Assembly (NCBI GenBank): GCA_963699705.1
Contig: CAVOUW010000001.1
Location: 33,929 to 97,928 of the forward strand
Source: an uncultured delta proteobacterium
GTDB taxonomy: Bacteria; Desulfobacterota; Binatia; Binatales; Binataceae
DNA: 64,000 bases
Reading direction: 5' to 3'
A model generated the notes under the pieces. It ran no database searches. It saw only the letters and a list, made by a program, of their open reading frames with translations, and was not told the DNA's origin. The position numbers and the translations under genes were made by a program. Below, piece by piece: positions 23,060-31,366 of this stretch. How positions within the stretch are numbered: the first letter of the stretch is position 1; the number at the start of each line of letters is the position of its first letter.

Positions 23060-25179
23060 ATGGCTGTGGAGGAAATCGGAAGGCTTCGGACAATCGCAAT
23101 CGTGGGCCAGGGCGGGACCGGCAAGACGCAGGCCGCCGACGCGATGCTCTTCACTTCAGGCGCTCGCGCCGCGGCTCGGGCGGCCCGACGACGGCTCGGC
23201 CGCGATGGACTTCGAGCCCGAAGAAACCAAGCATCACATTTCAATCAGCTCCGCGTTCAATCATCTCAACTGGAAAAAGACCGAAGTAATTTTCGCCGAC
23301 ACGCCCGGCTACACCGCGTTTCTGCCCGAGACGCTCACGACTCTGCGCGCGGTTGACGGGGTCGTGATGCTGATAAGTCCGGGCGCCGACACCAAGATCG
23401 AATCGGAAAAAATCTGGAGCGGCGACCGAAGAACTCAAGCTGCCGCGGATCGCGTTCGTCTCGCGGCTCGATCGCGAGCGCACCAGCTTCGACGCCGCGA
23501 TGAAGGATCTCGAGAAAGTTCTCGGCGCGCGCGCGGTCGCGCTGACGATTCCGATCGGCGAGGAGCTTGGCTTCAAGGGCGTCGTCGACGTACTCGCGAT
23601 GAAAGCACTGACCTACGCCGACACCAGCGGCAAATTCAAGGAAGAGGAACTGTCCGCCGACCTGAAGACCCAGGCGGAAGCGGCGCGCACCGCGTTGTTC
23701 GAGGCGGTCGCCGAGACCGACGACGCGCTGCTCGAAAAATATCTCGATAAGGGCACTCTCGACGACGCCGAAGTTCGCGCCGCGCTGCATGCGGCCGTCG
23801 TCGATCGCAAAATCACTCCCGTTTTCTGCGGCTCGGGCGCGAAAAATATCGGCATCGGCCCGCTGCTCGACGCCGTCACGACATATCTGCCCGCGCCCAA
23901 CGAGCGGCCGCCGGTGGAATGCCAAAATCCCACGACCGGCGAGCCGGTCAGCCGTCCCGCTGATCCGTCAGCGCCGCTCGCTGCGCTGGTGTTCAAGACG
24001 ATCATCGATCCGTTCGCCGGCAAGCTTTCCATCTTCCGTATCATTTCTGGCCGCGCCCAAAGCGACGGTTCGGTGCTCAACTCGACTCGCGAAACGAAGG
24101 AGCGCTTCGGTCAGTTGCTGCGGCTCGAAGGCAAGAAGCAGTCGCCCATCGCCAGCGCGATTGCCGGCGAAATTGTCGCCGTCGCCAAGCTCAAGGACAC
24201 TACCACCGGCGACACGTTGTGCGACGAGAAGGCGCCGGTGCTCGTAATGCCGCCGTTGACGCGTCCCCACGGCGTCATCTCGTTCGCGGTTCGGCCCAAG
24301 ACCAAGAGCGATGAGGAAAAGTCGTCTGCGGCGATGCAAAAGCTGATCGAGGAGGACCTCGCGCTCGAGATGCATCGCGATCCGCAAACTCACGACATCA
24401 TTCTGTCGGGCACCGGCCAGATGCATATCGAAATCACGGTCGAGAAGTTGCGTCGAAAGTTCAACGTAGACGTCGAGCTGCAAGCGCCCAAGGTTCCGTA
24501 CAAGGAAACGATCAAGGGACGCGCCGAGGCGCAGGGCAAGTACAAGCGCCAGTCCGGCGGTCGCGGCCAATACGGCGATTGCTGGCTCAAGATCGAGCCG
24601 ATGCAGCGCGGCAAGGGCTTCGAGTTCGTCGACAATATCGTCGGCGGCGTCATCCCGCGCAACTTTATTCCGTCCGTCGAAAAGGGCGTGCGCAACACGC
24701 TGCCCGACGGATTCCTGGCCGGCTACCCAATGGTGGACGTTAGAGTGACCGTCTTCGACGGCAGCTATCACGACGTCGATTCGTCGGACATGGCGTTTCA
24801 GATTGCAGCCTCGATGGGCTTCAAGGCGTGCCTGGAAAAAGCCCGGCCGATCATCCTCGAACCAATCGTCGCGATCGAAGTCGCGTGTCCCGACGAATGC
24901 ATGGGCGACGTGATCGGCGACTTGAATTCGCGCCGCGGCAAAGTCCTCGGCATGGACAGTAAGGGCAACGGCCAGGTGATCAAGGCGCAGGTCCCGATGT
25001 CGGAAGTGCTGAAGTACGCGCCCGACCTGCGCTCGATCACGTCGGGTCGCGGCTCGTTCGAGCAACACTTTTCGCACTACGAGGAGGCTCCGGCTCCGGT
25101 CGCTGAAAAAATTATCAAGGAGACGCATGCGGCGCGCGAGGCCGCCGGCGCCAAATCGCACGCCCACGCGCACGCATAA
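23060..25179 (+). CDS. Elongation factor G paralogue (EF-G2-like), apparent indels near 23170 and 23420
   Basis: GQGGTGKT, DTPGY, PKVPYKET, KRQSGGRGQYG, DGSYHDVDSS, ILEPI. Confidence 0.9.
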
Positions 25180-25256
25180 GCGGTGCGAGTGGGCAGGGCG
25201 GCCTTGTATTGCCAGCGCCGCCCGTCTTGTACAATCGGGCCTGAGTATGCACTGCG

Positions 25257-25469
25257 ATGGCGCCGATAGGAAAAAGCCTGGTCTTCGCCGGTATCGCGAT
25301 CATCGTCGTGGGACTGCTGCTGTGGGGATTCTCGTCGGTTCCGTTGGTCGGCAAACTGCCCGGCGATATCTACATCCGTCGCGGCAATTTCACCTTCTAT
25401 TTTCCTATCGTCACCTGCATTTTAATCAGCATCATTGCGACAATCTTCCTCTCGTTGATGAGGCGTTGA
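25257..25469 (+). CDS. DUF2905-family small membrane protein
   Basis: GKLPGDIYI...FYFPIVTCILIS. Confidence 0.88.
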   Translation: MAPIGKSLVFAGIAIIVVGLLLWGFSSVPLVGKLPGDIYIRRGNFTFYFPIVTCILISIIATIFLSLMRR

Positions 25470-25473
25470 CCAA

Positions 25474-27759
25474 TTGGCAGCGGACAAGCAGGTAGGCGCG
25501 CATCGGCTTGCAGAGCGCAAGCGGCGTCGTCGCGAAGCGCAAAAGAACGTAAGCCCACATCGGCTTGCAGAGCGCAAGCGCCGTCGTCGCGAGCTGATCG
25601 CGGTCGGCGTGGCCGGCGCGGTTTTAGTCGCATTCGTATTCGCGCAAACCGAGCTGCCGCCGCTCACGCGTCACACCTCGCTCGCTTCCAATCTCGCCGT
25701 CATCTCGCTCTTCAACCTGAGCTTCCTGCTGCTCGCCTTGATGTTGTTCCTGGTCGGACGCAATCTCGCCAAGGTCTTCTTCGAGCGCCGCCGCGGTTTG
25801 ATTGGCTCGAAATTCCAGGCGCGGCTGGTCTCGGGCTTTATCGCCGTCGCACTGATCCCCAGCGCGTTCCTGCTTTACGTGTCGGGCGTCTTCCTGCACG
25901 CCGACATCAACAGCTGGTTCAATCCCGAGTACGAGCGGATTCTTAACGACTCGCTCGAAATCGCGAAGACCTACTACCTCAACTCAGCCAACAACGCGTC
26001 GCATTTCGCGCGCGTGCTGGCAGAGGAGATCTCGGCACAAGGACTGCTCGCGCCGACTAAGCGCGACGACCTCAAAAAGTTCATCGCCAAGCGTCAGCAG
26101 GAATACAACCTCGGCACTATCGAGGTCTTCTCCGCCGATCGCAAACTGTTGCTGCTCGACATCAGCCCCAAGACGCCCACCGGCATCGGCGCGTCGCCCG
26201 ATTCACCGATCATCTCGCAAACCCTGAAGGGACAGGCGCTCACGCGCACCGACCGCCTCGGCGACGCCGACGTGATCCGCGGCTCCGCGCCAATTTACGT
26301 CTCGAGCGATGCCGACAATGTGCTCGGTGCCGTGCTGGTCGATTACTACCTGCCGCAAAGCCTCGCGACCCGCGCTACCAACATCTCGCGCGTCTCCGAG
26401 GATTATTTCCAGCTCCGAATCCTTCGCCAGCCGATCATGAACAGCTACCTGATTACGCTGGTGCTGATCGGACTGGTGGTGGTCACGCTCGCGAGCTGGT
26501 TCGGAATTTTTCTCTCGCGCGGAATCACCGGCCCGATCAAATTGCTCGCCCGCGGGACGCAAGCGATCGCCGGCGGCGATCTCAACTTTCGCATCCCCGC
26601 CGTCGGCGATGACGAAATTGGGCATCTCGTCGACTCCTTCAACCAGATGACCACCGATCTGCGCTCATCAGCCGCCGAACTCGAGCGTCGCCGGCAGTAC
26701 ACGGAGACTTTGTTGCGCAACGTGTCGGCGGGCGTCGTCGGACTCGACCACGACGGCGTCGTCACCACGATCAATCCATGCGCCGAGCGCCTGCTCGACC
26801 TCAACGCCGCCGACGTCATCGGCCGCAACTATCAGGGCGCGTTTCCGGCCACGCTCGCCCGCGTGCTCGACGACGTCTTCGCATTCGCGACGCGTCCGCG
26901 CGAGGCTCGTTCGACCGTCAAGCTCGAAGTCGCTGGCAGCGAGACCGAGCTGATGATGACGGCGAGTCCGCTCGGAGACACCCCCGGCGAGCCAGCCGGA
27001 ACGGTCCTGTTCTTCGAGGACGTCAGCCAGATCGCGAAGGTCGAGCGCATGGAGGCTTGGCGCGAAGTCGCACGCCGCATCGCGCACGAGATAAAAAATC
27101 CGTTGACTCCGATCCAGCTCTCAGCCGAACGCCTCCGCCGTCAGCTTGGCGCCCGCCCGGGAATCGAATCCGCGCTGGTCGAGGAATGCACCAAGACCAT
27201 CATCGGCGAGGTCGAGGATCTCAAGCGTCTCGTCAATGAGTTCTCGGCCTTCGCGCGGATGCCGCATCTCAATCCCGTCCCCGGCGACATCAACGCGCTG
27301 GCCGGCGAGACCGTCGCGAATTTCCGCGAAGCTCATCCCAACGTCGAGTTTGTGCTCGCGCTCGACCCCGCGATTCCGCTTATCCCGATCGATCGCGACG
27401 CGATGAAGCGCGCGCTCGTCAACCTGCTCGACAACGCCGTCGCCGCCGTAACCGCCTTCAGTCACAACGGCGCCGGCCCGCAAATCGAAGTCCGCAGTCA
27501 CCGGCTTTCCGACAACTCGCTGGTGACCCTCGAAGTCGCCGACAACGGCCCCGGCATCGACCCGCGCCTCCGTACGCGCATCTTCGAGCCGTACTATTCC
27601 GGCCGAAAAGGCGGCACCGGGCTGGGCCTTGCGATCGTTTCCGCGGTCGTAACCGACCATCATGGCTTCGTTCGCGTGACCGACAACCGCCCGCGCGGAA
27701 GTAGATTTGTGCTCGAATTTCCTGTTAAACTTCAGCAATTCGCAAAGGCAACCGGCTGA
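25474..27759 (+). CDS. NtrY-like sensor histidine kinase (TM, HAMP, PAS, HisKA, HATPase)
   Basis: AWREVARRIAHEIKNPLTPIQLSAERL, NLLDNA, DNGPGI, GTGLGL. Confidence 0.92.
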   Translation: MAADKQVGAHRLAERKRRRREAQKNVSPHRLAERKRRRRELIAVGVAGAVLVAFVFAQTELPPLTRHTSLASNLAVISLFNLSFLLLALMLFLVGRNLAKVFFERRRGLIGSKFQARLVSGFIAVALIPSAFLLYVSGVFLHADINSWFNPEYERILNDSLEIAKTYYLNSANNASHFARVLAEEISAQGLLAPTKRDDLKKFIAKRQQEYNLGTIEVFSADRKLLLLDISPKTPTGIGASPDSPIISQTLKGQALTRTDRLGDADVIRGSAPIYVSSDADNVLGAVLVDYYLPQSLATRATNISRVSEDYFQLRILRQPIMNSYLITLVLIGLVVVTLASWFGIFLSRGITGPIKLLARGTQAIAGGDLNFRIPAVGDDEIGHLVDSFNQMTTDLRSSAAELERRRQYTETLLRNVSAGVVGLDHDGVVTTINPCAERLLDLNAADVIGRNYQGAFPATLARVLDDVFAFATRPREARSTVKLEVAGSETELMMTASPLGDTPGEPAGTVLFFEDVSQIAKVERMEAWREVARRIAHEIKNPLTPIQLSAERLRRQLGARPGIESALVEECTKTIIGEVEDLKRLVNEFSAFARMPHLNPVPGDINALAGETVANFREAHPNVEFVLALDPAIPLIPIDRDAMKRALVNLLDNAVAAVTAFSHNGAGPQIEVRSHRLSDNSLVTLEVADNGPGIDPRLRTRIFEPYYSGRKGGTGLGLAIVSAVVTDHHGFVRVTDNRPRGSRFVLEFPVKLQQFAKATG

Positions 27760-27811
27760 TGCGACCCTCACCGCGCTCTGACATGAGCGCGCTTCCCGGA
27801 GAAAATCTAAC

Positions 27812-29089
27812 GTGAATGAGACCGTGCTGGTGGTGGATGATGAGGAGCGGATTCGGTCGTCGTTGCGTGGAATTCTAAGCGACGAAGGCTTTCGTGTGGT
27901 CGATACCGGCAACGCGCCCGGCGTGATGGACCTGATCGCGCGCGAGAGTCCCGCAATCGTTCTGCTCGATGTCTGGATGCCTGAGATGGACGGCATCGAG
28001 TTGCTGCGGCGAATAAAAAGCGAGCAGCCGCGCGTGCCGGTGATCATGATCTCCGGCCATGCCAACATCCAGAGCGCGGTCGCCGCGACCAAACTGGGCG
28101 CCGCCGATTTTATTCAGAAGCCATTTTCGGTCAGTGGATTGCTCGCGTCGATCGCACGCGCGCTCGAGGGCGATTCCGCCGGTCCCGATCGGTCGCACGC
28201 ACGCGGGATGAGCGCAGCGGTCCGCGCCGCCGGCCGCGAGGCAATCCGCGCCGGTGCGATACCGCAAAAAACTGTCGCGCGCTCCATCGTGATGGGCGGG
28301 CAGGGGCTTCACACCGGCCTCAAGACCGGCGTCATCCTTCATCCTGCGCCCGCCGGATTCGGCATCGTGTTCACCTCGCTCGCCGACGAAACCGCGATTC
28401 CAGTTCGCTTCGAGAACGTCACCGACACCGGCTACAACACCACGCTCACCAGCGGCAGCCGCTCGGTCCGCACCGTCGAACATTTGCTGTCGGTACTGCA
28501 TGCGTTCGGCATCACCAATCTCCTCATCAAGACTGACGACGAAGTCCCCGCGCTCGACGGCTCCGCGCTCGAGTTCTGCAAACAGCTGGCCGAAGCCGGA
28601 CTCACCGAACAGGACGCGACCGTCGAACCGATCAACCTCAAGCACAAGATCGTGATCGGCGAGGAAGGCGAGGGCCTCGAGTACATCAAGGTCGAGCCCG
28701 CCGATCATCTAATCATCGACTACACGCTCGATTACCCGAAACCGATCGGCATCCAGCAGTTGCACTTCGAGCTGACTTCTATCGAGGCCTATACACGTGA
28801 AATCGCACCCGCACGAACCTTCGGCTTCGTCTGGGAGTTCCGCAAGCTCGCACAGCTAGGCCTCGGCAGCGGCGCCCGCATCGACAACGCAATCCTGGTC
28901 GACGACGAGAAGGTAGTTAACACGACGTTGCGCTTCCCCGACGAATTCGCCCGCCACAAAGTCCTGGACCTTATCGGCGACCTCTACCTGCTAGGCCGCC
29001 CCCTACACGCGCACATAACCGCCTCAAAAACCGGCCACTCCGACAACCTGGCCCTAGTGAAGGCAATCCACGCCTCTCTACAGAGCTAG
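27812..29089 (+). CDS. lpxC: Response-regulator receiver fused to UDP-3-O-acyl-GlcNAc deacetylase
   Basis: REC: VVDDE, LLDVWMP, ISGH, QKPF. LpxC from about 28262: GLHTG, TVEHLL, DGSA, ARTFGF, HKVLDLIGDL, KTGH. Confidence 0.92.
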   Translation: MNETVLVVDDEERIRSSLRGILSDEGFRVVDTGNAPGVMDLIARESPAIVLLDVWMPEMDGIELLRRIKSEQPRVPVIMISGHANIQSAVAATKLGAADFIQKPFSVSGLLASIARALEGDSAGPDRSHARGMSAAVRAAGREAIRAGAIPQKTVARSIVMGGQGLHTGLKTGVILHPAPAGFGIVFTSLADETAIPVRFENVTDTGYNTTLTSGSRSVRTVEHLLSVLHAFGITNLLIKTDDEVPALDGSALEFCKQLAEAGLTEQDATVEPINLKHKIVIGEEGEGLEYIKVEPADHLIIDYTLDYPKPIGIQQLHFELTSIEAYTREIAPARTFGFVWEFRKLAQLGLGSGARIDNAILVDDEKVVNTTLRFPDEFARHKVLDLIGDLYLLGRPLHAHITASKTGHSDNLALVKAIHASLQS

Positions 29090-29100
29090 TCATCGTTTTT

Positions 29101-29145
29101 ATTCCGGTTCCCCTTCCCGCGCGGGAAGGGGTTAGGGGTTAGGTT
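29101..29145 (+). repeat. Repeat family A
   Basis: CCCTTCCCGCGCGGGAAGGGGTTAGGGGTTAGG. Confidence 0.85.
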
Positions 29146-29175
29146 CCTAAGGCGCAAGCGCCTAGTCTTCTAACC

Positions 29176-29907
29176 ATGGACCTGAAAAACAAAGTAGCCC
29201 TAATAACCGGCGCAGGCCGCCGCATCGGTCGCGCAATCGCGATGGACCTGGCCGCCCACGGCACATCAGTAGCAGTCCACTACCACACCTCGCGCACCGA
29301 AGCGGAATCCGTAGCCTCCGAAATCACCACCAACGGGTGCAAGGCGCAAACCTTCCGCGCCAATCTCGAGCACGTCACCGAAATCGAGCAGATGGTCACA
29401 AACGTCCTTGACGCCTTCGGCCGTATCGACATCCTAATAAACTCAGCCTCAGTCTTTGCCCCAACACCTATCGAAAAAATAACCGAGCGCGACTGGGATG
29501 TGAATCTCGACACCAACCTGAAGGCGCCATTCTTCCTATCGAAGTTCGCCAGCGCTGCGATGCGCAAACAAGGCGCTGGAAAGATCATCAATCTGGGCGA
29601 TTGGGCCGGCATCCGCCCCTACAAGGACTACCTGCCATACTCAGTCTCAAAGAGCGGCCTGATAGGATTGACCAAAGCGCTAGCAAAGGAGCTAGCCCCC
29701 GAAGTCCAGGTCAACTGCATAGCACTAGGAATGGTAATTCCCCCCGAGACTTACACGAAGGAAGAAGTAGATCGCCTCGTAAGTCGCACGCTGACAAAAA
29801 AAATGGGCACGCCCGAAGACGTAGCCCGCGCCGTCCTCTTCTTCTGCGAGACCGACTTCGCAACAGGCGCGGTACTAAGTCTCGAAGGTGGCCGCCTCCT
29901 GGTCTAA
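29176..29907 (+). CDS. SDR oxidoreductase (pteridine reductase/FolM-like)
   Basis: TGAGRRIG, VHYHTS, NSASVF, YSVSK. Confidence 0.85.
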   Translation: MDLKNKVALITGAGRRIGRAIAMDLAAHGTSVAVHYHTSRTEAESVASEITTNGCKAQTFRANLEHVTEIEQMVTNVLDAFGRIDILINSASVFAPTPIEKITERDWDVNLDTNLKAPFFLSKFASAAMRKQGAGKIINLGDWAGIRPYKDYLPYSVSKSGLIGLTKALAKELAPEVQVNCIALGMVIPPETYTKEEVDRLVSRTLTKKMGTPEDVARAVLFFCETDFATGAVLSLEGGRLLV

Positions 29908-29931
29908 GCGAGCGAGCTTTTGTGGTGGAAT

Positions 29932-30215
29932 CGCAGAACCCTCACCGCTGGCCGCCGATGCGGCCATCCACCTCTCCCGTAAAGCTCCCCCTCACCCGCG
30001 CCAGCGGCGCGACCTCTCCCGCAACAAAGCGGGAGAGGCGAATAATCAGTGGCGCGGGACGCAACATCCTAACTTGGGCGAGGGAAAAGTCGGACACTCC
30101 TCCCCAAAAAACTTCTAACAGGTGCGAAGCACCGCATCTTTTCTTGATACTAAGGTGCAGGGCTTAGCCCTGCCGAAGGAAGCGTGAAACCCACCGCGGG
30201 TTTCACATTAAATTA
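29932..30215 (+). repeat. Mosaic of repeats C and B between convergent genes
   Basis: CGCAGAACCCTCACC...CCTCTCCCG, then B at 30134-30215. Confidence 0.8.
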
Positions 30216-31271
30216 AGTTCCCTTCTGCGCCGCGCTCTCCCCGGGCGCCTTCTTGAATTCAATCTTAGCCTGCTTGGCGATCTTCTTGAGCAACGCCTTC
30301 ACGACCATATCCTCATTCTCATCGAGGATGAACATCGCGATCTTCGCCTTCACTTCCGGCAGCGGCGAGATCGTCTCCCCGCGCCGCGCGACCACTTTGA
30401 TAAAGCTGAATCCGAGATTCGACTGAACGATTTGCGTCAACTGCCCGACCGGCGTCGCGAACACCACCTTGTCCACCACCGGCGGCAGTTGCCCGGGCCG
30501 AAAGTAGCCGAGGTCGCCGCCCTTCGCCGCCGATTCGGTATCCTCCGAGTCCTGTTTCGCCAGCGCGGCGAAGTCCTTGGTCGTCTTCGCCTCGTTGTAA
30601 ATCTTGATGATCTTTTCCGCCGCCGCCTTCTTCTGCGCGTCGGTCGCATTCGGCGGAAGCTTCACCGCGATATGCGCCAGCTCCACCTCGCCTGGATCTT
30701 TCACGAACAGATCGCGATGCTCCTCATAATACTTCTGAATCTGCGCATCGGTAGGTTGCACATGATGCGCCCGGAATTCGTCGTCTAACATCTTCTCGAT
30801 CATCATCGACCCGCGCACCGCGTTCATCAGTTGCGCATCCGGCGCGCCCGTCTGAGGCGCAGTCTGTCCGCCCACTCCACCAATCTGGAACTCGCGCGCG
30901 CGCTGCGCCACTTCGGCATCCGAAATCGTGATCTTGCGTCTCGCCGCTTCCTGCAGCAGCAATTGCCGGTTGATTAAATTCTCACTCGCATCGCGAAATA
31001 CCGCCTTCGATTCTTCGGTGCTGGTCGCGTTGATCATCTGCGCTTCGGTCTTCGCATAATCGGTGATTTCCGCCGCCGTAATCGGCGCGCCGTTAACCGT
31101 CACCACCACCGGGTCTTTCGGATCGGGCTTGACCAGCGGAATGATCCCGAGAAAGCGCTGCTGCCAATTGAGCCCCGACTGACCCAGTTGCGCGCGCACC
31201 GGACAAGCGGTTGCAACTGCCACCACAATCGCGACAATCAGAAAGGCAATCGACTTCAGGCTAATGCGCAT
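30213..31271 (-). CDS. SurA/PrsA-like PpiC-type peptidyl-prolyl isomerase
   Basis: Signal peptide, VTVNGAPIT, AHIAVK, FAALAKQDSED, GGDLGYF. Confidence 0.88.
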   Translation of the reverse strand: MRISLKSIAFLIVAIVVAVATACPVRAQLGQSGLNWQQRFLGIIPLVKPDPKDPVVVTVNGAPITAAEITDYAKTEAQMINATSTEESKAVFRDASENLINRQLLLQEAARRKITISDAEVAQRAREFQIGGVGGQTAPQTGAPDAQLMNAVRGSMMIEKMLDDEFRAHHVQPTDAQIQKYYEEHRDLFVKDPGEVELAHIAVKLPPNATDAQKKAAAEKIIKIYNEAKTTKDFAALAKQDSEDTESAAKGGDLGYFRPGQLPPVVDKVVFATPVGQLTQIVQSNLGFSFIKVVARRGETISPLPEVKAKIAMFILDENEDMVVKALLKKIAKQAKIEFKKAPGESAAQKGT

Positions 31272-31366
31272 CAATTCAAATCCCCCAATCGGCAACGACG
31301 CGACGCGATGAATCCACGGCGTACTATCGGCCGCGCCCCGGCGTCAAGGCAATCTGGAGATTCGCG

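Follow-up and report, generated by a model that had tools for sequence, protein, structure and literature searches.

The 64,000-nucleotide stretch of DNA considered here (the window) comes from the genome of an uncultured soil bacterium of the family Binataceae (assembly GCA_963699705.1, contig CAVOUW010000001.1, positions 33,929 to 97,928), and carries a gene in which the receiver (REC) domain of a response regulator and LpxC, the UDP-3-O-acyl-GlcNAc deacetylase that catalyses the committed step of outer-membrane lipid A synthesis, are joined in a single reading frame. This gene lies directly downstream of an NtrY-like sensor histidine kinase gene on the same strand (Table 1). A preliminary description, made from the sequence alone, had placed an uninterrupted open reading frame (ORF) of 425 amino acids (aa) 52 nucleotides (nt) behind such a kinase, and had read in it an NtrX-like receiver (motifs DDE, LLDVWMP and QKPF), a linker, and a complete LpxC with its zinc and catalytic motifs; all of these elements were borne out where they had been placed, the linker being a disordered segment of about 25 aa. 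The genome (4.89 Mb in 3 contigs, 96.6% complete) contains a single match to the LpxC family PF03331, namely the fusion gene, and no second, stand-alone lpxC, for which the preliminary description had advised a check. LpxB is also found, and therefore the lipid A pathway exists in this organism. The fusion is the sole LpxC of the cell.

Table 1. Positions of the kinase gene, the fusion gene and associated features, numbered from the first letter of the window.
Feature	Coordinates	Strand	Remarks
NtrY-like sensor histidine kinase ORF	25474..27759	+	761 aa
57-nt tandem duplication	25479..25592	+	2 copies, 86% identical, in first kinase codons; repeat search
Spacer, kinase stop to fusion start	27760..27811	+	52 nt; GGAG at 27798-27801
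REC-LpxC fusion gene	27812..29089	+	425 aa, GTG start; genome's sole LpxC match
Receiver domain	27824..28153	+	residues 5-114; Pfam match and motifs
Phospho-acceptor D53 codon	27968-27970	+	receiver motif
Linker	28175..28249	+	residues 122-146; predicted disordered (pLDDT <50); varies among close homologs
LpxC deacetylase domain	28265..29071	+	residues 152-420; profiles, motifs, fold
Perfect 22-nt GC-rich palindrome	29110..29131		20 nt past fusion stop codon

Both halves of the protein are recognised far above the family cut-offs: Response_reg (PF00072) with E = 1e-30 (106.6 bits against a cut-off of 30.2), and LpxC (PF03331) with E = 3.4e-82 (276.4 bits against 27) over profile positions 1-267 of 268, while the NCBIfam equivalog model for lpxC, TIGR00325, gives 245 bits against 187.25. 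The receiver motifs (DDE at residue 9, LLDVWMP at 51, MISGH at 79, QKPF at 102) supply the key residues D9, D10, the phospho-acceptor D53, W55, S81 and K103. Those of LpxC (VEHLL at 222, ARTFGF at 334, HKVLD at 382, LIGD at 387, TGHSD at 407), which align with the matching positions of solved Pseudomonas aeruginosa LpxC chains, supply E223, H224, T336, F337, H382, K383, D386, D390 and H409; among them are the zinc ligands (H224, H382, D386) and the catalytic Glu, His, Thr, Lys and Asp (E223, H409, T336, K383, D390), with roles assigned from the E. coli enzyme. The best receiver-type NCBIfam match of the fusion is NtrX, although the NtrX model NF051870 is matched in the receiver region only (positions 3-123 of 452; 124.5 bits against a cut-off of 600), and the solved structures nearest to the receiver are those of Brucella NtrX, 4d6x (97 bits) and 5m7n (94 bits), the next best scoring 84 bits. 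Receiver and Brucella NtrX share a Trp two residues past the phospho-Asp (DIW/DVW), MISGH, and an F[IL][EQ]KPF signature. The model for LpxC-FabZ fusions (NF009667) reaches 207.5 bits against a cut-off of 465. On these profiles and motifs, the protein would be a catalytically competent LpxC bearing a phosphorylatable, NtrX-type receiver at its N-terminus.

Structure prediction with AlphaFold2 agrees with this division of the chain. The window protein (95-row alignment) was modelled with a mean local confidence (pLDDT) of 89.3 and a predicted template-modelling score (pTM) of 0.86, only the linker falling below a pLDDT of 50, and a homolog of 41% identity (36-row alignment) reached 91.5 and 0.83. 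The LpxC half superposes on Aquifex LpxC (5u86) with a template-modelling (TM) score of 0.95 normalised to the target, a root-mean-square deviation of 1.6 A and E = 1.3e-32; no solved chain spans both halves, the best TM score normalised to the query being 0.62. Since LpxC makes up 65% of the chain, a pTM of this size needs a low predicted error between the domains, which implies that in the models the receiver holds a defined position packed against LpxC. Docking of the halves as separate chains (receiver 1-121, LpxC 147-425) gave 0.02 and 0.01, the mark being 0.32, in runs without controls, and speaks neither for nor against such packing.

Conservation of the functional residues was followed through 39 complete fused representatives, one per cluster at <=50% identity. 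The phospho-acceptor position is Asp in 37 of the 39 and K103 is Lys in 38; S/T81 and W55 are kept in all, D9 is kept in 36 (Glu in the remaining 3), and D10 in 38 (Asn in the remaining one). On the LpxC side E223, H224, H382, K383, D386, D390 and H409 are each invariant (39/39), and T336 is kept in 38. The E. coli enzyme has a long extended C-terminal tail, which serves as a degron. In the window protein just 16 residues follow the catalytic GH histidine, and across the representatives this tail measures 10-28 residues, so the fused LpxC has no long tail of the E. coli kind. Judging from these patterns, the receiver and LpxC halves both look functional and under selection.

The fusion is real, ancient and widespread. 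All 120 of the close homologs listed (72-97% identity) carry PF03331 together with PF00072, and apart from a few fragments are 422-446 aa long; their sources are assemblies of JGI, ENA, NCBI and Logan, and the named ones are Candidatus Binatus or Binataceae. Public databases label such proteins simply LpxC, or NtrX in the case of some long forms. The REC-linker-LpxC junction is crossed, with 1 mismatch, by a contig of sequencing run X1, which is perhaps the source sample and so not independent. The spacer between kinase and fusion is crossed by a contig from another study, which belongs to a relative and differs by 7 mismatches and 2 gaps. RNA libraries, which can hold DNA, yield contigs that match parts of the kinase gene and of both fusion domains at 90-95% identity; none of them bridges the REC-LpxC junction, the runs in question yielding short contigs only, none of which covers the full stretch.

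Complete fusions come in several lengths, which we classed by the number of residues that separate their REC and LpxC matches. An exhaustive search among representative sequences returned 1850 proteins at E <=1e-30, and the best 150 of these, with the window protein and two locus proteins, formed the classified set: 20 of its complete fusions are short forms, with 19-65 aa between the two matches, 17 are long forms (260-348 aa), and 2 are intermediate, with gaps of 93 and 115 aa, one of these keeping only a remnant of the AAA+ lid. The long forms at two loci, L033 and L031, are proteins of 728-795 aa composed of REC, Sigma54_activat, AAA_lid_14 and LpxC. In a sample of 201 genomes of the window's phylum, fused LpxC is present in 48, spread across 20 of the sampled families (34 short or intermediate, 14 long), a count that leaves out LpxC matches in long open frames of G164 (1086 aa) and G132 (514 aa). 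In 26 genomes, the window's own included, the match extends over the whole query, and 8 further genomes have intermediate REC-(~60 aa)-LpxC fusions in a single frame without a stop. Exactly one LpxC match occurs in 45 of the 48 fused genomes; the exceptions are G034 and G199, in which the extra copy is a stand-alone lpxC, and G074. In the ESM Atlas, the architecture was found in 17 clusters of >=50 members among the 30 nearest, most commonly in Binatota and Myxococcota, while Nitrospinota names attach to one long and one intermediate cluster. Of the best 80 loci in named genomes, 2 span both domains, both in metagenome-assembled genomes named 'Deltaproteobacteria bacterium', which is no gauge of distribution. 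Triple kinase-REC-LpxC fusions were considered for ORFs of 934-1354 aa at three loci (L015, L016, L018); only REC and LpxC score in frame there, and the length of these ORFs is therefore ascribed to stop-free read-through in high-GC DNA.

The kinase upstream of the fusion has HAMP (346-397), PAS (411-517), HisKA and HATPase_c (640-752) domains above their cut-offs, the conserved His of HisKA being H538 in the motif HEIKNP. Hydropathy predicts four transmembrane segments (residues 41-59, 76-94, 118-136 and 329-347), the third and fourth separated by a loop of ~190 aa, a topology that fits an extracytoplasmic sensor. It is the genome's only match to the NtrY_N domain (PF19312) in a six-frame search, and the homologous kinase at L033, which lies directly upstream of a long form, scores 35.3 bits for this domain. 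The annotated TTG start is uncertain and the real start may lie downstream, because relatives align only from about residue 58 and the first codons fall inside the 57-nt duplication.

The preliminary description had proposed to look for synteny of the kinase with the REC-LpxC architecture, and within the window's class the kinase is syntenic with the fusion. In the window the gene immediately preceding the fusion encodes the NtrY-like kinase, and the same arrangement is seen at 6 of 16 other short-form loci (of the same family, the same class, and G162), at 6 of 14 long-form loci and at 0 of 8 intermediate ones. Fusions without an adjacent kinase, here called orphan fusions, have unrelated genes as neighbours (HTH_17, radical SAM, glyoxalase, OmpA-family, PhoH). 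In all five orphan-fusion genomes tested an NtrY-like kinase is encoded elsewhere (28-41% identity; two of the matches contain stop codons), with no regulator beside these distant kinases within ~1.5 kb on each side. From the adjacency and the domain content of the two proteins we infer a partnership between kinase and receiver.

Two side observations concern these neighbourhoods. At two orphan loci the REC-LpxC gene is followed by a small protein of 134-140 aa with an HTH_17 domain (MerR/excisionase-type; family f16, at L017 3559-3963(-) and L021 7318-7740(+)). In the two genomes with an extra stand-alone lpxC, G034 (L156, C33 5133-8457) and G199 (L157, C232 1465-5464), that gene immediately precedes an NtrY-like kinase gene in the same orientation, and no response regulator was detected near these lpxC-kinase pairs.

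As to other parts of LpxC control, the preliminary description had pointed to lapB and yejM, and the window genome has neither a LapB ortholog nor a YejM-type DUF3413 protein by the models used: its best score for the LapB model NF008757 is 39.6 bits against a cut-off of 363, which the E. coli control passes; the LapB zinc-ribbon PF18073 has no match, its control being unspecific; and DUF3413 of the YejM/PbgA type (PF11893) has no match, its control matching in E. coli only. No regulator of the genome exceeds the cut-off of the NtrX equivalog (best 412.8 against 600 bits), while 27 matches to sigma54-type AAA+ domains were counted, many of them in NtrC-like regulators.

The origin of the fusion was approached through a tree of LpxC domains (103 rows), from which were left out fragments with an incomplete LpxC or a partial REC or AAA+ domain, and hits without an LpxC match. 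All fused forms fall on one side of a single branch (44 against 59 rows; SH-like approximate likelihood ratio test (SH-aLRT) support 99), the 44 rows including one N-extended row and four receiver-less ones. Short and long forms interleave within this clade, and its well-supported branches force at least 6 changes for the character 'short'. The long forms have no helix-turn-helix (HTH) match, LpxC occupying the position of the HTH domain, and their AAA+ module has GAFTGA in 0 of 17 and the Glu of the Walker-B DE in 0 of 17, with the P-loop mostly kept; for comparison, two NtrC-like proteins of the window genome have GAFTGA or GAFTDA, both with DE. The AAA+ module of the long forms is therefore not a sigma54 activator, and by its motifs it is probably not an ATPase. 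The simplest reading would be one origin, in which an NtrX-like regulator (REC plus a sigma54-type AAA+ domain without GAFTGA) swapped its DNA-binding end for LpxC; the AAA+ module would then have been lost repeatedly, giving rise to short forms such as that of the window. The preliminary description had stated that the window protein lacks AAA+ and HTH domains. This is correct for the 425-aa protein, in which a Pfam scan finds neither, but the missing AAA+ needs the context of apparent descent from a REC-AAA+-LpxC form. Such descent also means that NtrX would have been remodelled in evolution and not deleted by a misassembly, an error that had been named in the same description as a possible source of the fusion, and that homologs from many assemblies, together with the junction-bridging contigs, exclude.

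At the nucleotide level, the GTG start of the fusion is preceded at a distance of 10 nt by GGAG, and a promoter and terminator scan, whose counts were about those expected from shuffled sequence, finds no terminator-like site in the spacer. The palindrome beyond the stop codon is followed by GGTTAGG repeats and is one copy of a dispersed repeat (154 genome matches per strand with <=2 mismatches, against 0 for the reversed control); it looks like a repetitive extragenic palindromic (REP)-like element, and probably marks the 3' end of the kinase-fusion transcription unit. The bin that includes it (29083-29200) shows a spike in summed contig depth, ~655 and 7,635 in two soil DNA runs. The duplication at the 5' end of the kinase gene, missed by Tandem Repeats Finder and detected by a separate repeat search, encodes a repeated basic peptide, HRLAERKRRRRE. 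One copy is missing (25478->25536) from contigs of runs X1 and X16, so the duplication is polymorphic or strain-specific. GC content stays between 0.57 and 0.66 across the locus with no break, and Rfam gives no family match within 25000-30300.

Of the neighbouring genes, the one upstream of the kinase is EF-G-like (23060-25179, +) and is split over three frames by comparison with an intact 700-aa homolog in locus L014: residues 1-34 are encoded at 23060-23161, 39-119 at 23175-23417 and 125-691 at 23434-25137, which puts one frameshift near 23161-23175 and another near 23417-23434. Either the gene is a pseudogene or the assembly contains indel errors here. Downstream of the fusion follow a short-chain dehydrogenase gene (29176-29907, +), which also comes after the fusion in L014 (54% identity), and an envelope-biogenesis gene for a SurA-like periplasmic peptidyl-prolyl isomerase chaperone (SurA_N plus Rotamase; 30213-31295, -).

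We propose that the cell's sole LpxC carries an NtrX-type receiver and has its activity set by the upstream kinase through phosphorylation of D53, a reading to which we assign a probability of roughly 60%. The membrane-bound NtrY-like kinase would sense an extracytoplasmic or envelope signal and would phosphorylate D53; the phosphorylation state would alter the packing of the receiver against LpxC, and the altered packing would raise or lower deacetylase activity (either direction is conceivable), directly setting the flux into lipid A. Control of LpxC activity by phosphorylation would thus be exerted within the enzyme's own chain.

Several findings weigh against this proposal. The phospho-Asp is replaced (by N or S) in 2 of the 39 representatives and the Lys is lost in 1, and therefore some members cannot be phospho-switched. 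The NtrY_N domain of the window kinase is borderline, with 22.6 bits against a cut-off of 23.2 in the protein scan and 24.5 bits in the six-frame search. No kinase is adjacent in 10 of the 16 other short-form, 8 of the 8 intermediate and 7 of the 14 long-form loci (the long-form locus L151 ends at a contig edge), and at such orphan loci it is only a kinase elsewhere in the genome that argues for the partnership. Finally, four receiver-less rows of 283-292 aa (P0215, P0185, P0165 and P0174) lie inside the fused clade; either gene calls cut short or a genuine secondary loss of the receiver could account for them.

Other roles for the receiver can be envisaged. One is that it governs the abundance of LpxC and not its activity, phosphorylation exposing or hiding a degradation signal for a housekeeping protease such as FtsH, Lon or ClpXP, in other words a phospho-degron replacing LapB/YejM. 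RssB is a receiver-domain protein that governs proteolysis, and RssB is among the NCBIfam receiver matches of the fusion; the window genome has no match to LapB or to the YejM type, and the 25-aa disordered linker could be an initiation site for degradation. LpxC is moreover under proteolytic control in E. coli, and possibly under that of Lon in alphaproteobacteria, according to a recent review (PMC12444477). We nevertheless hold control of abundance to be unlikely, as the short tail of the fused family contains no extended degron like that of E. coli, the locus has neither an adaptor nor a protease gene linked to it, and the high pTM points to a fixed receiver-LpxC interface, which would suit allostery more directly.

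Slightly less likely still is that the receiver is a structural or oligomerisation module, a relic of NtrX, with LpxC constitutive and phosphorylation without a role for lipid A. Such a relic would fit the lack of an adjacent kinase at most fusion loci outside the window's class and the loss of the phospho-Asp in two representatives, and the AAA+ module, decayed and repeatedly lost, could be seen as ancestral machinery being dismantled. The full phospho-acceptor set is however kept in 37-39 of 39 divergent clusters, the receiver was retained while the AAA+ module was deleted at least 6 times, a pattern expected if the receiver is under selection, and an NtrY-like kinase is retained in each of the five orphan-fusion genomes tested. 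Signal flow could also be reversed, the LpxC domain reporting the occupancy of substrate or product and the protein serving mainly as a phosphate sink or competitor, by which the signal from NtrY to another regulator would be tuned. Single-domain and enzyme-linked receivers are known as phosphate sinks, and alternative targets for the kinase could be sought among the genome's many NtrC-like regulators; we regard this as highly improbable, since the fusion is the genome's only LpxC and has invariant catalytic residues, so that catalysis should be its primary job, and no other regulator is encoded beside the kinase. That an assembly error or frameshift joined a response-regulator gene to lpxC, an idea to which the broken EF-G-like gene in the same window might lend colour, is refuted by the same two-domain protein in all 120 listed homologs from many independent assemblies, by stop-free single-frame fusions in 48 of 201 phylum genomes, by the contigs across junction and spacer, and by the fact that indel errors break ORFs and do not create conserved ones.

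The proposed control of LpxC by phosphorylation of its own receiver can be set beside several known systems, the closest being NtrY/NtrX of Alphaproteobacteria (Brucella, Rhodobacter sphaeroides, Caulobacter). The likeness extends to the build of the kinase (several transmembrane segments, a weak NtrY_N, HAMP, PAS, HisKA, HATPase), to the receiver, which is nearest to that of Brucella NtrX, with long relatives that keep a sigma54-type AAA+ domain without GAFTGA, and to a physiological tie to lpxC and lipopolysaccharide (LPS). R. sphaeroides without NtrYX has 8.8-fold more lpxC transcript and twice the LPS, although there is no NtrX site upstream of lpxC (PMC7240162), and NtrYX is summarised in the review as lowering lpxC expression and LPS in C. 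crescentus too (PMC12444477). NtrX differs in being a DNA-binding transcription factor with a transcriptional and pleiotropic effect on lpxC, whereas in the fused family LpxC replaces the HTH domain, and the window protein is also without AAA+. A two-component system dedicated to lpxC exists in a related bacterial group: lpxC is the single target of Desulfovibrio vulgaris DVU2934 (PMC3333781; also PMC4114195 and bioRxiv 10.1101/2021.11.05.467447), and in S. fumaroxidans lpxC adjoins the orthologous regulator operon (PMC3333781). The lpxC-kinase pairs of G034 and G199 are a similar feature in the present sample. The DVU2931 kinase and the DVU2934 regulator work instead through DNA binding upstream of a separate lpxC.

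In architecture, the fusion resembles CheB (REC-methylesterase), PleD and WspR (REC-GGDEF) and RpfG (REC-HD-GYP), which likewise consist of an N-terminal receiver, a flexible linker and an enzyme, the packing of the two parts being predicted in the present case. In CheB the receiver gates the active site of the enzyme. The output of the window protein differs from these in being a biosynthetic housekeeping enzyme, present as the sole copy, and not a signalling enzyme. FtsH/LapB/YejM in E. coli and the activation by MurA in P. aeruginosa act through separate partner proteins, unlike a receiver within the chain. LpxC-FabZ (NF009667) is another natural LpxC fusion, and the nearest stand-alone-type representatives include 12 rows of this kind, longer at the C-terminus by 148-185 aa, but there the fusion is C-terminal and to a pathway enzyme, and these rows fall outside the receiver-fused clade.

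Receiver-enzyme regulators are thus already known; what is new is LpxC as the output and as the sole cellular copy. A full-text literature search, within the portions of the articles it returned, found no description of a receiver-LpxC protein or of LpxC as a receiver output, and neither 'fusion' nor 'receiver' occurs in the 2025 review 'The regulation of lipid A biosynthesis' (PMC12444477). For the control of LpxC that review names nothing beyond proteolysis, activation by MurA, a LapB homolog in Neisseria and pleiotropic effects on transcription; NtrYX figures in it solely as a transcriptional input of the pleiotropic kind. The receiver-LpxC family is apparently unstudied.

A broader interpretation, which we offer tentatively and to which we would give somewhat less than an even chance, is that a regulator was captured by its target: an NtrX-type controller of lpxC transcription would have become joined to LpxC, lost its DNA-binding domain and later, on several occasions, a dead AAA+ ring as well. 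In Binatota, Myxococcota-labelled, Nitrospinota and related uncultured lineages the resulting circuit would take the place of FtsH/LapB/YejM or MurA as the principal means of keeping outer-membrane lipid synthesis in balance. How lipid A is kept in balance outside the Gammaproteobacteria is largely an open question, and the family offers a directly testable candidate for a post-translational LpxC switch, with the sensor-facing domain and the enzyme in one protein and a candidate kinase adjoining. LpxC is also an antibiotic target, for which a natural allosteric handle would be of mechanistic interest. The long, intermediate and short forms, for their part, show stepwise how a regulator becomes the regulatory domain of its target enzyme.

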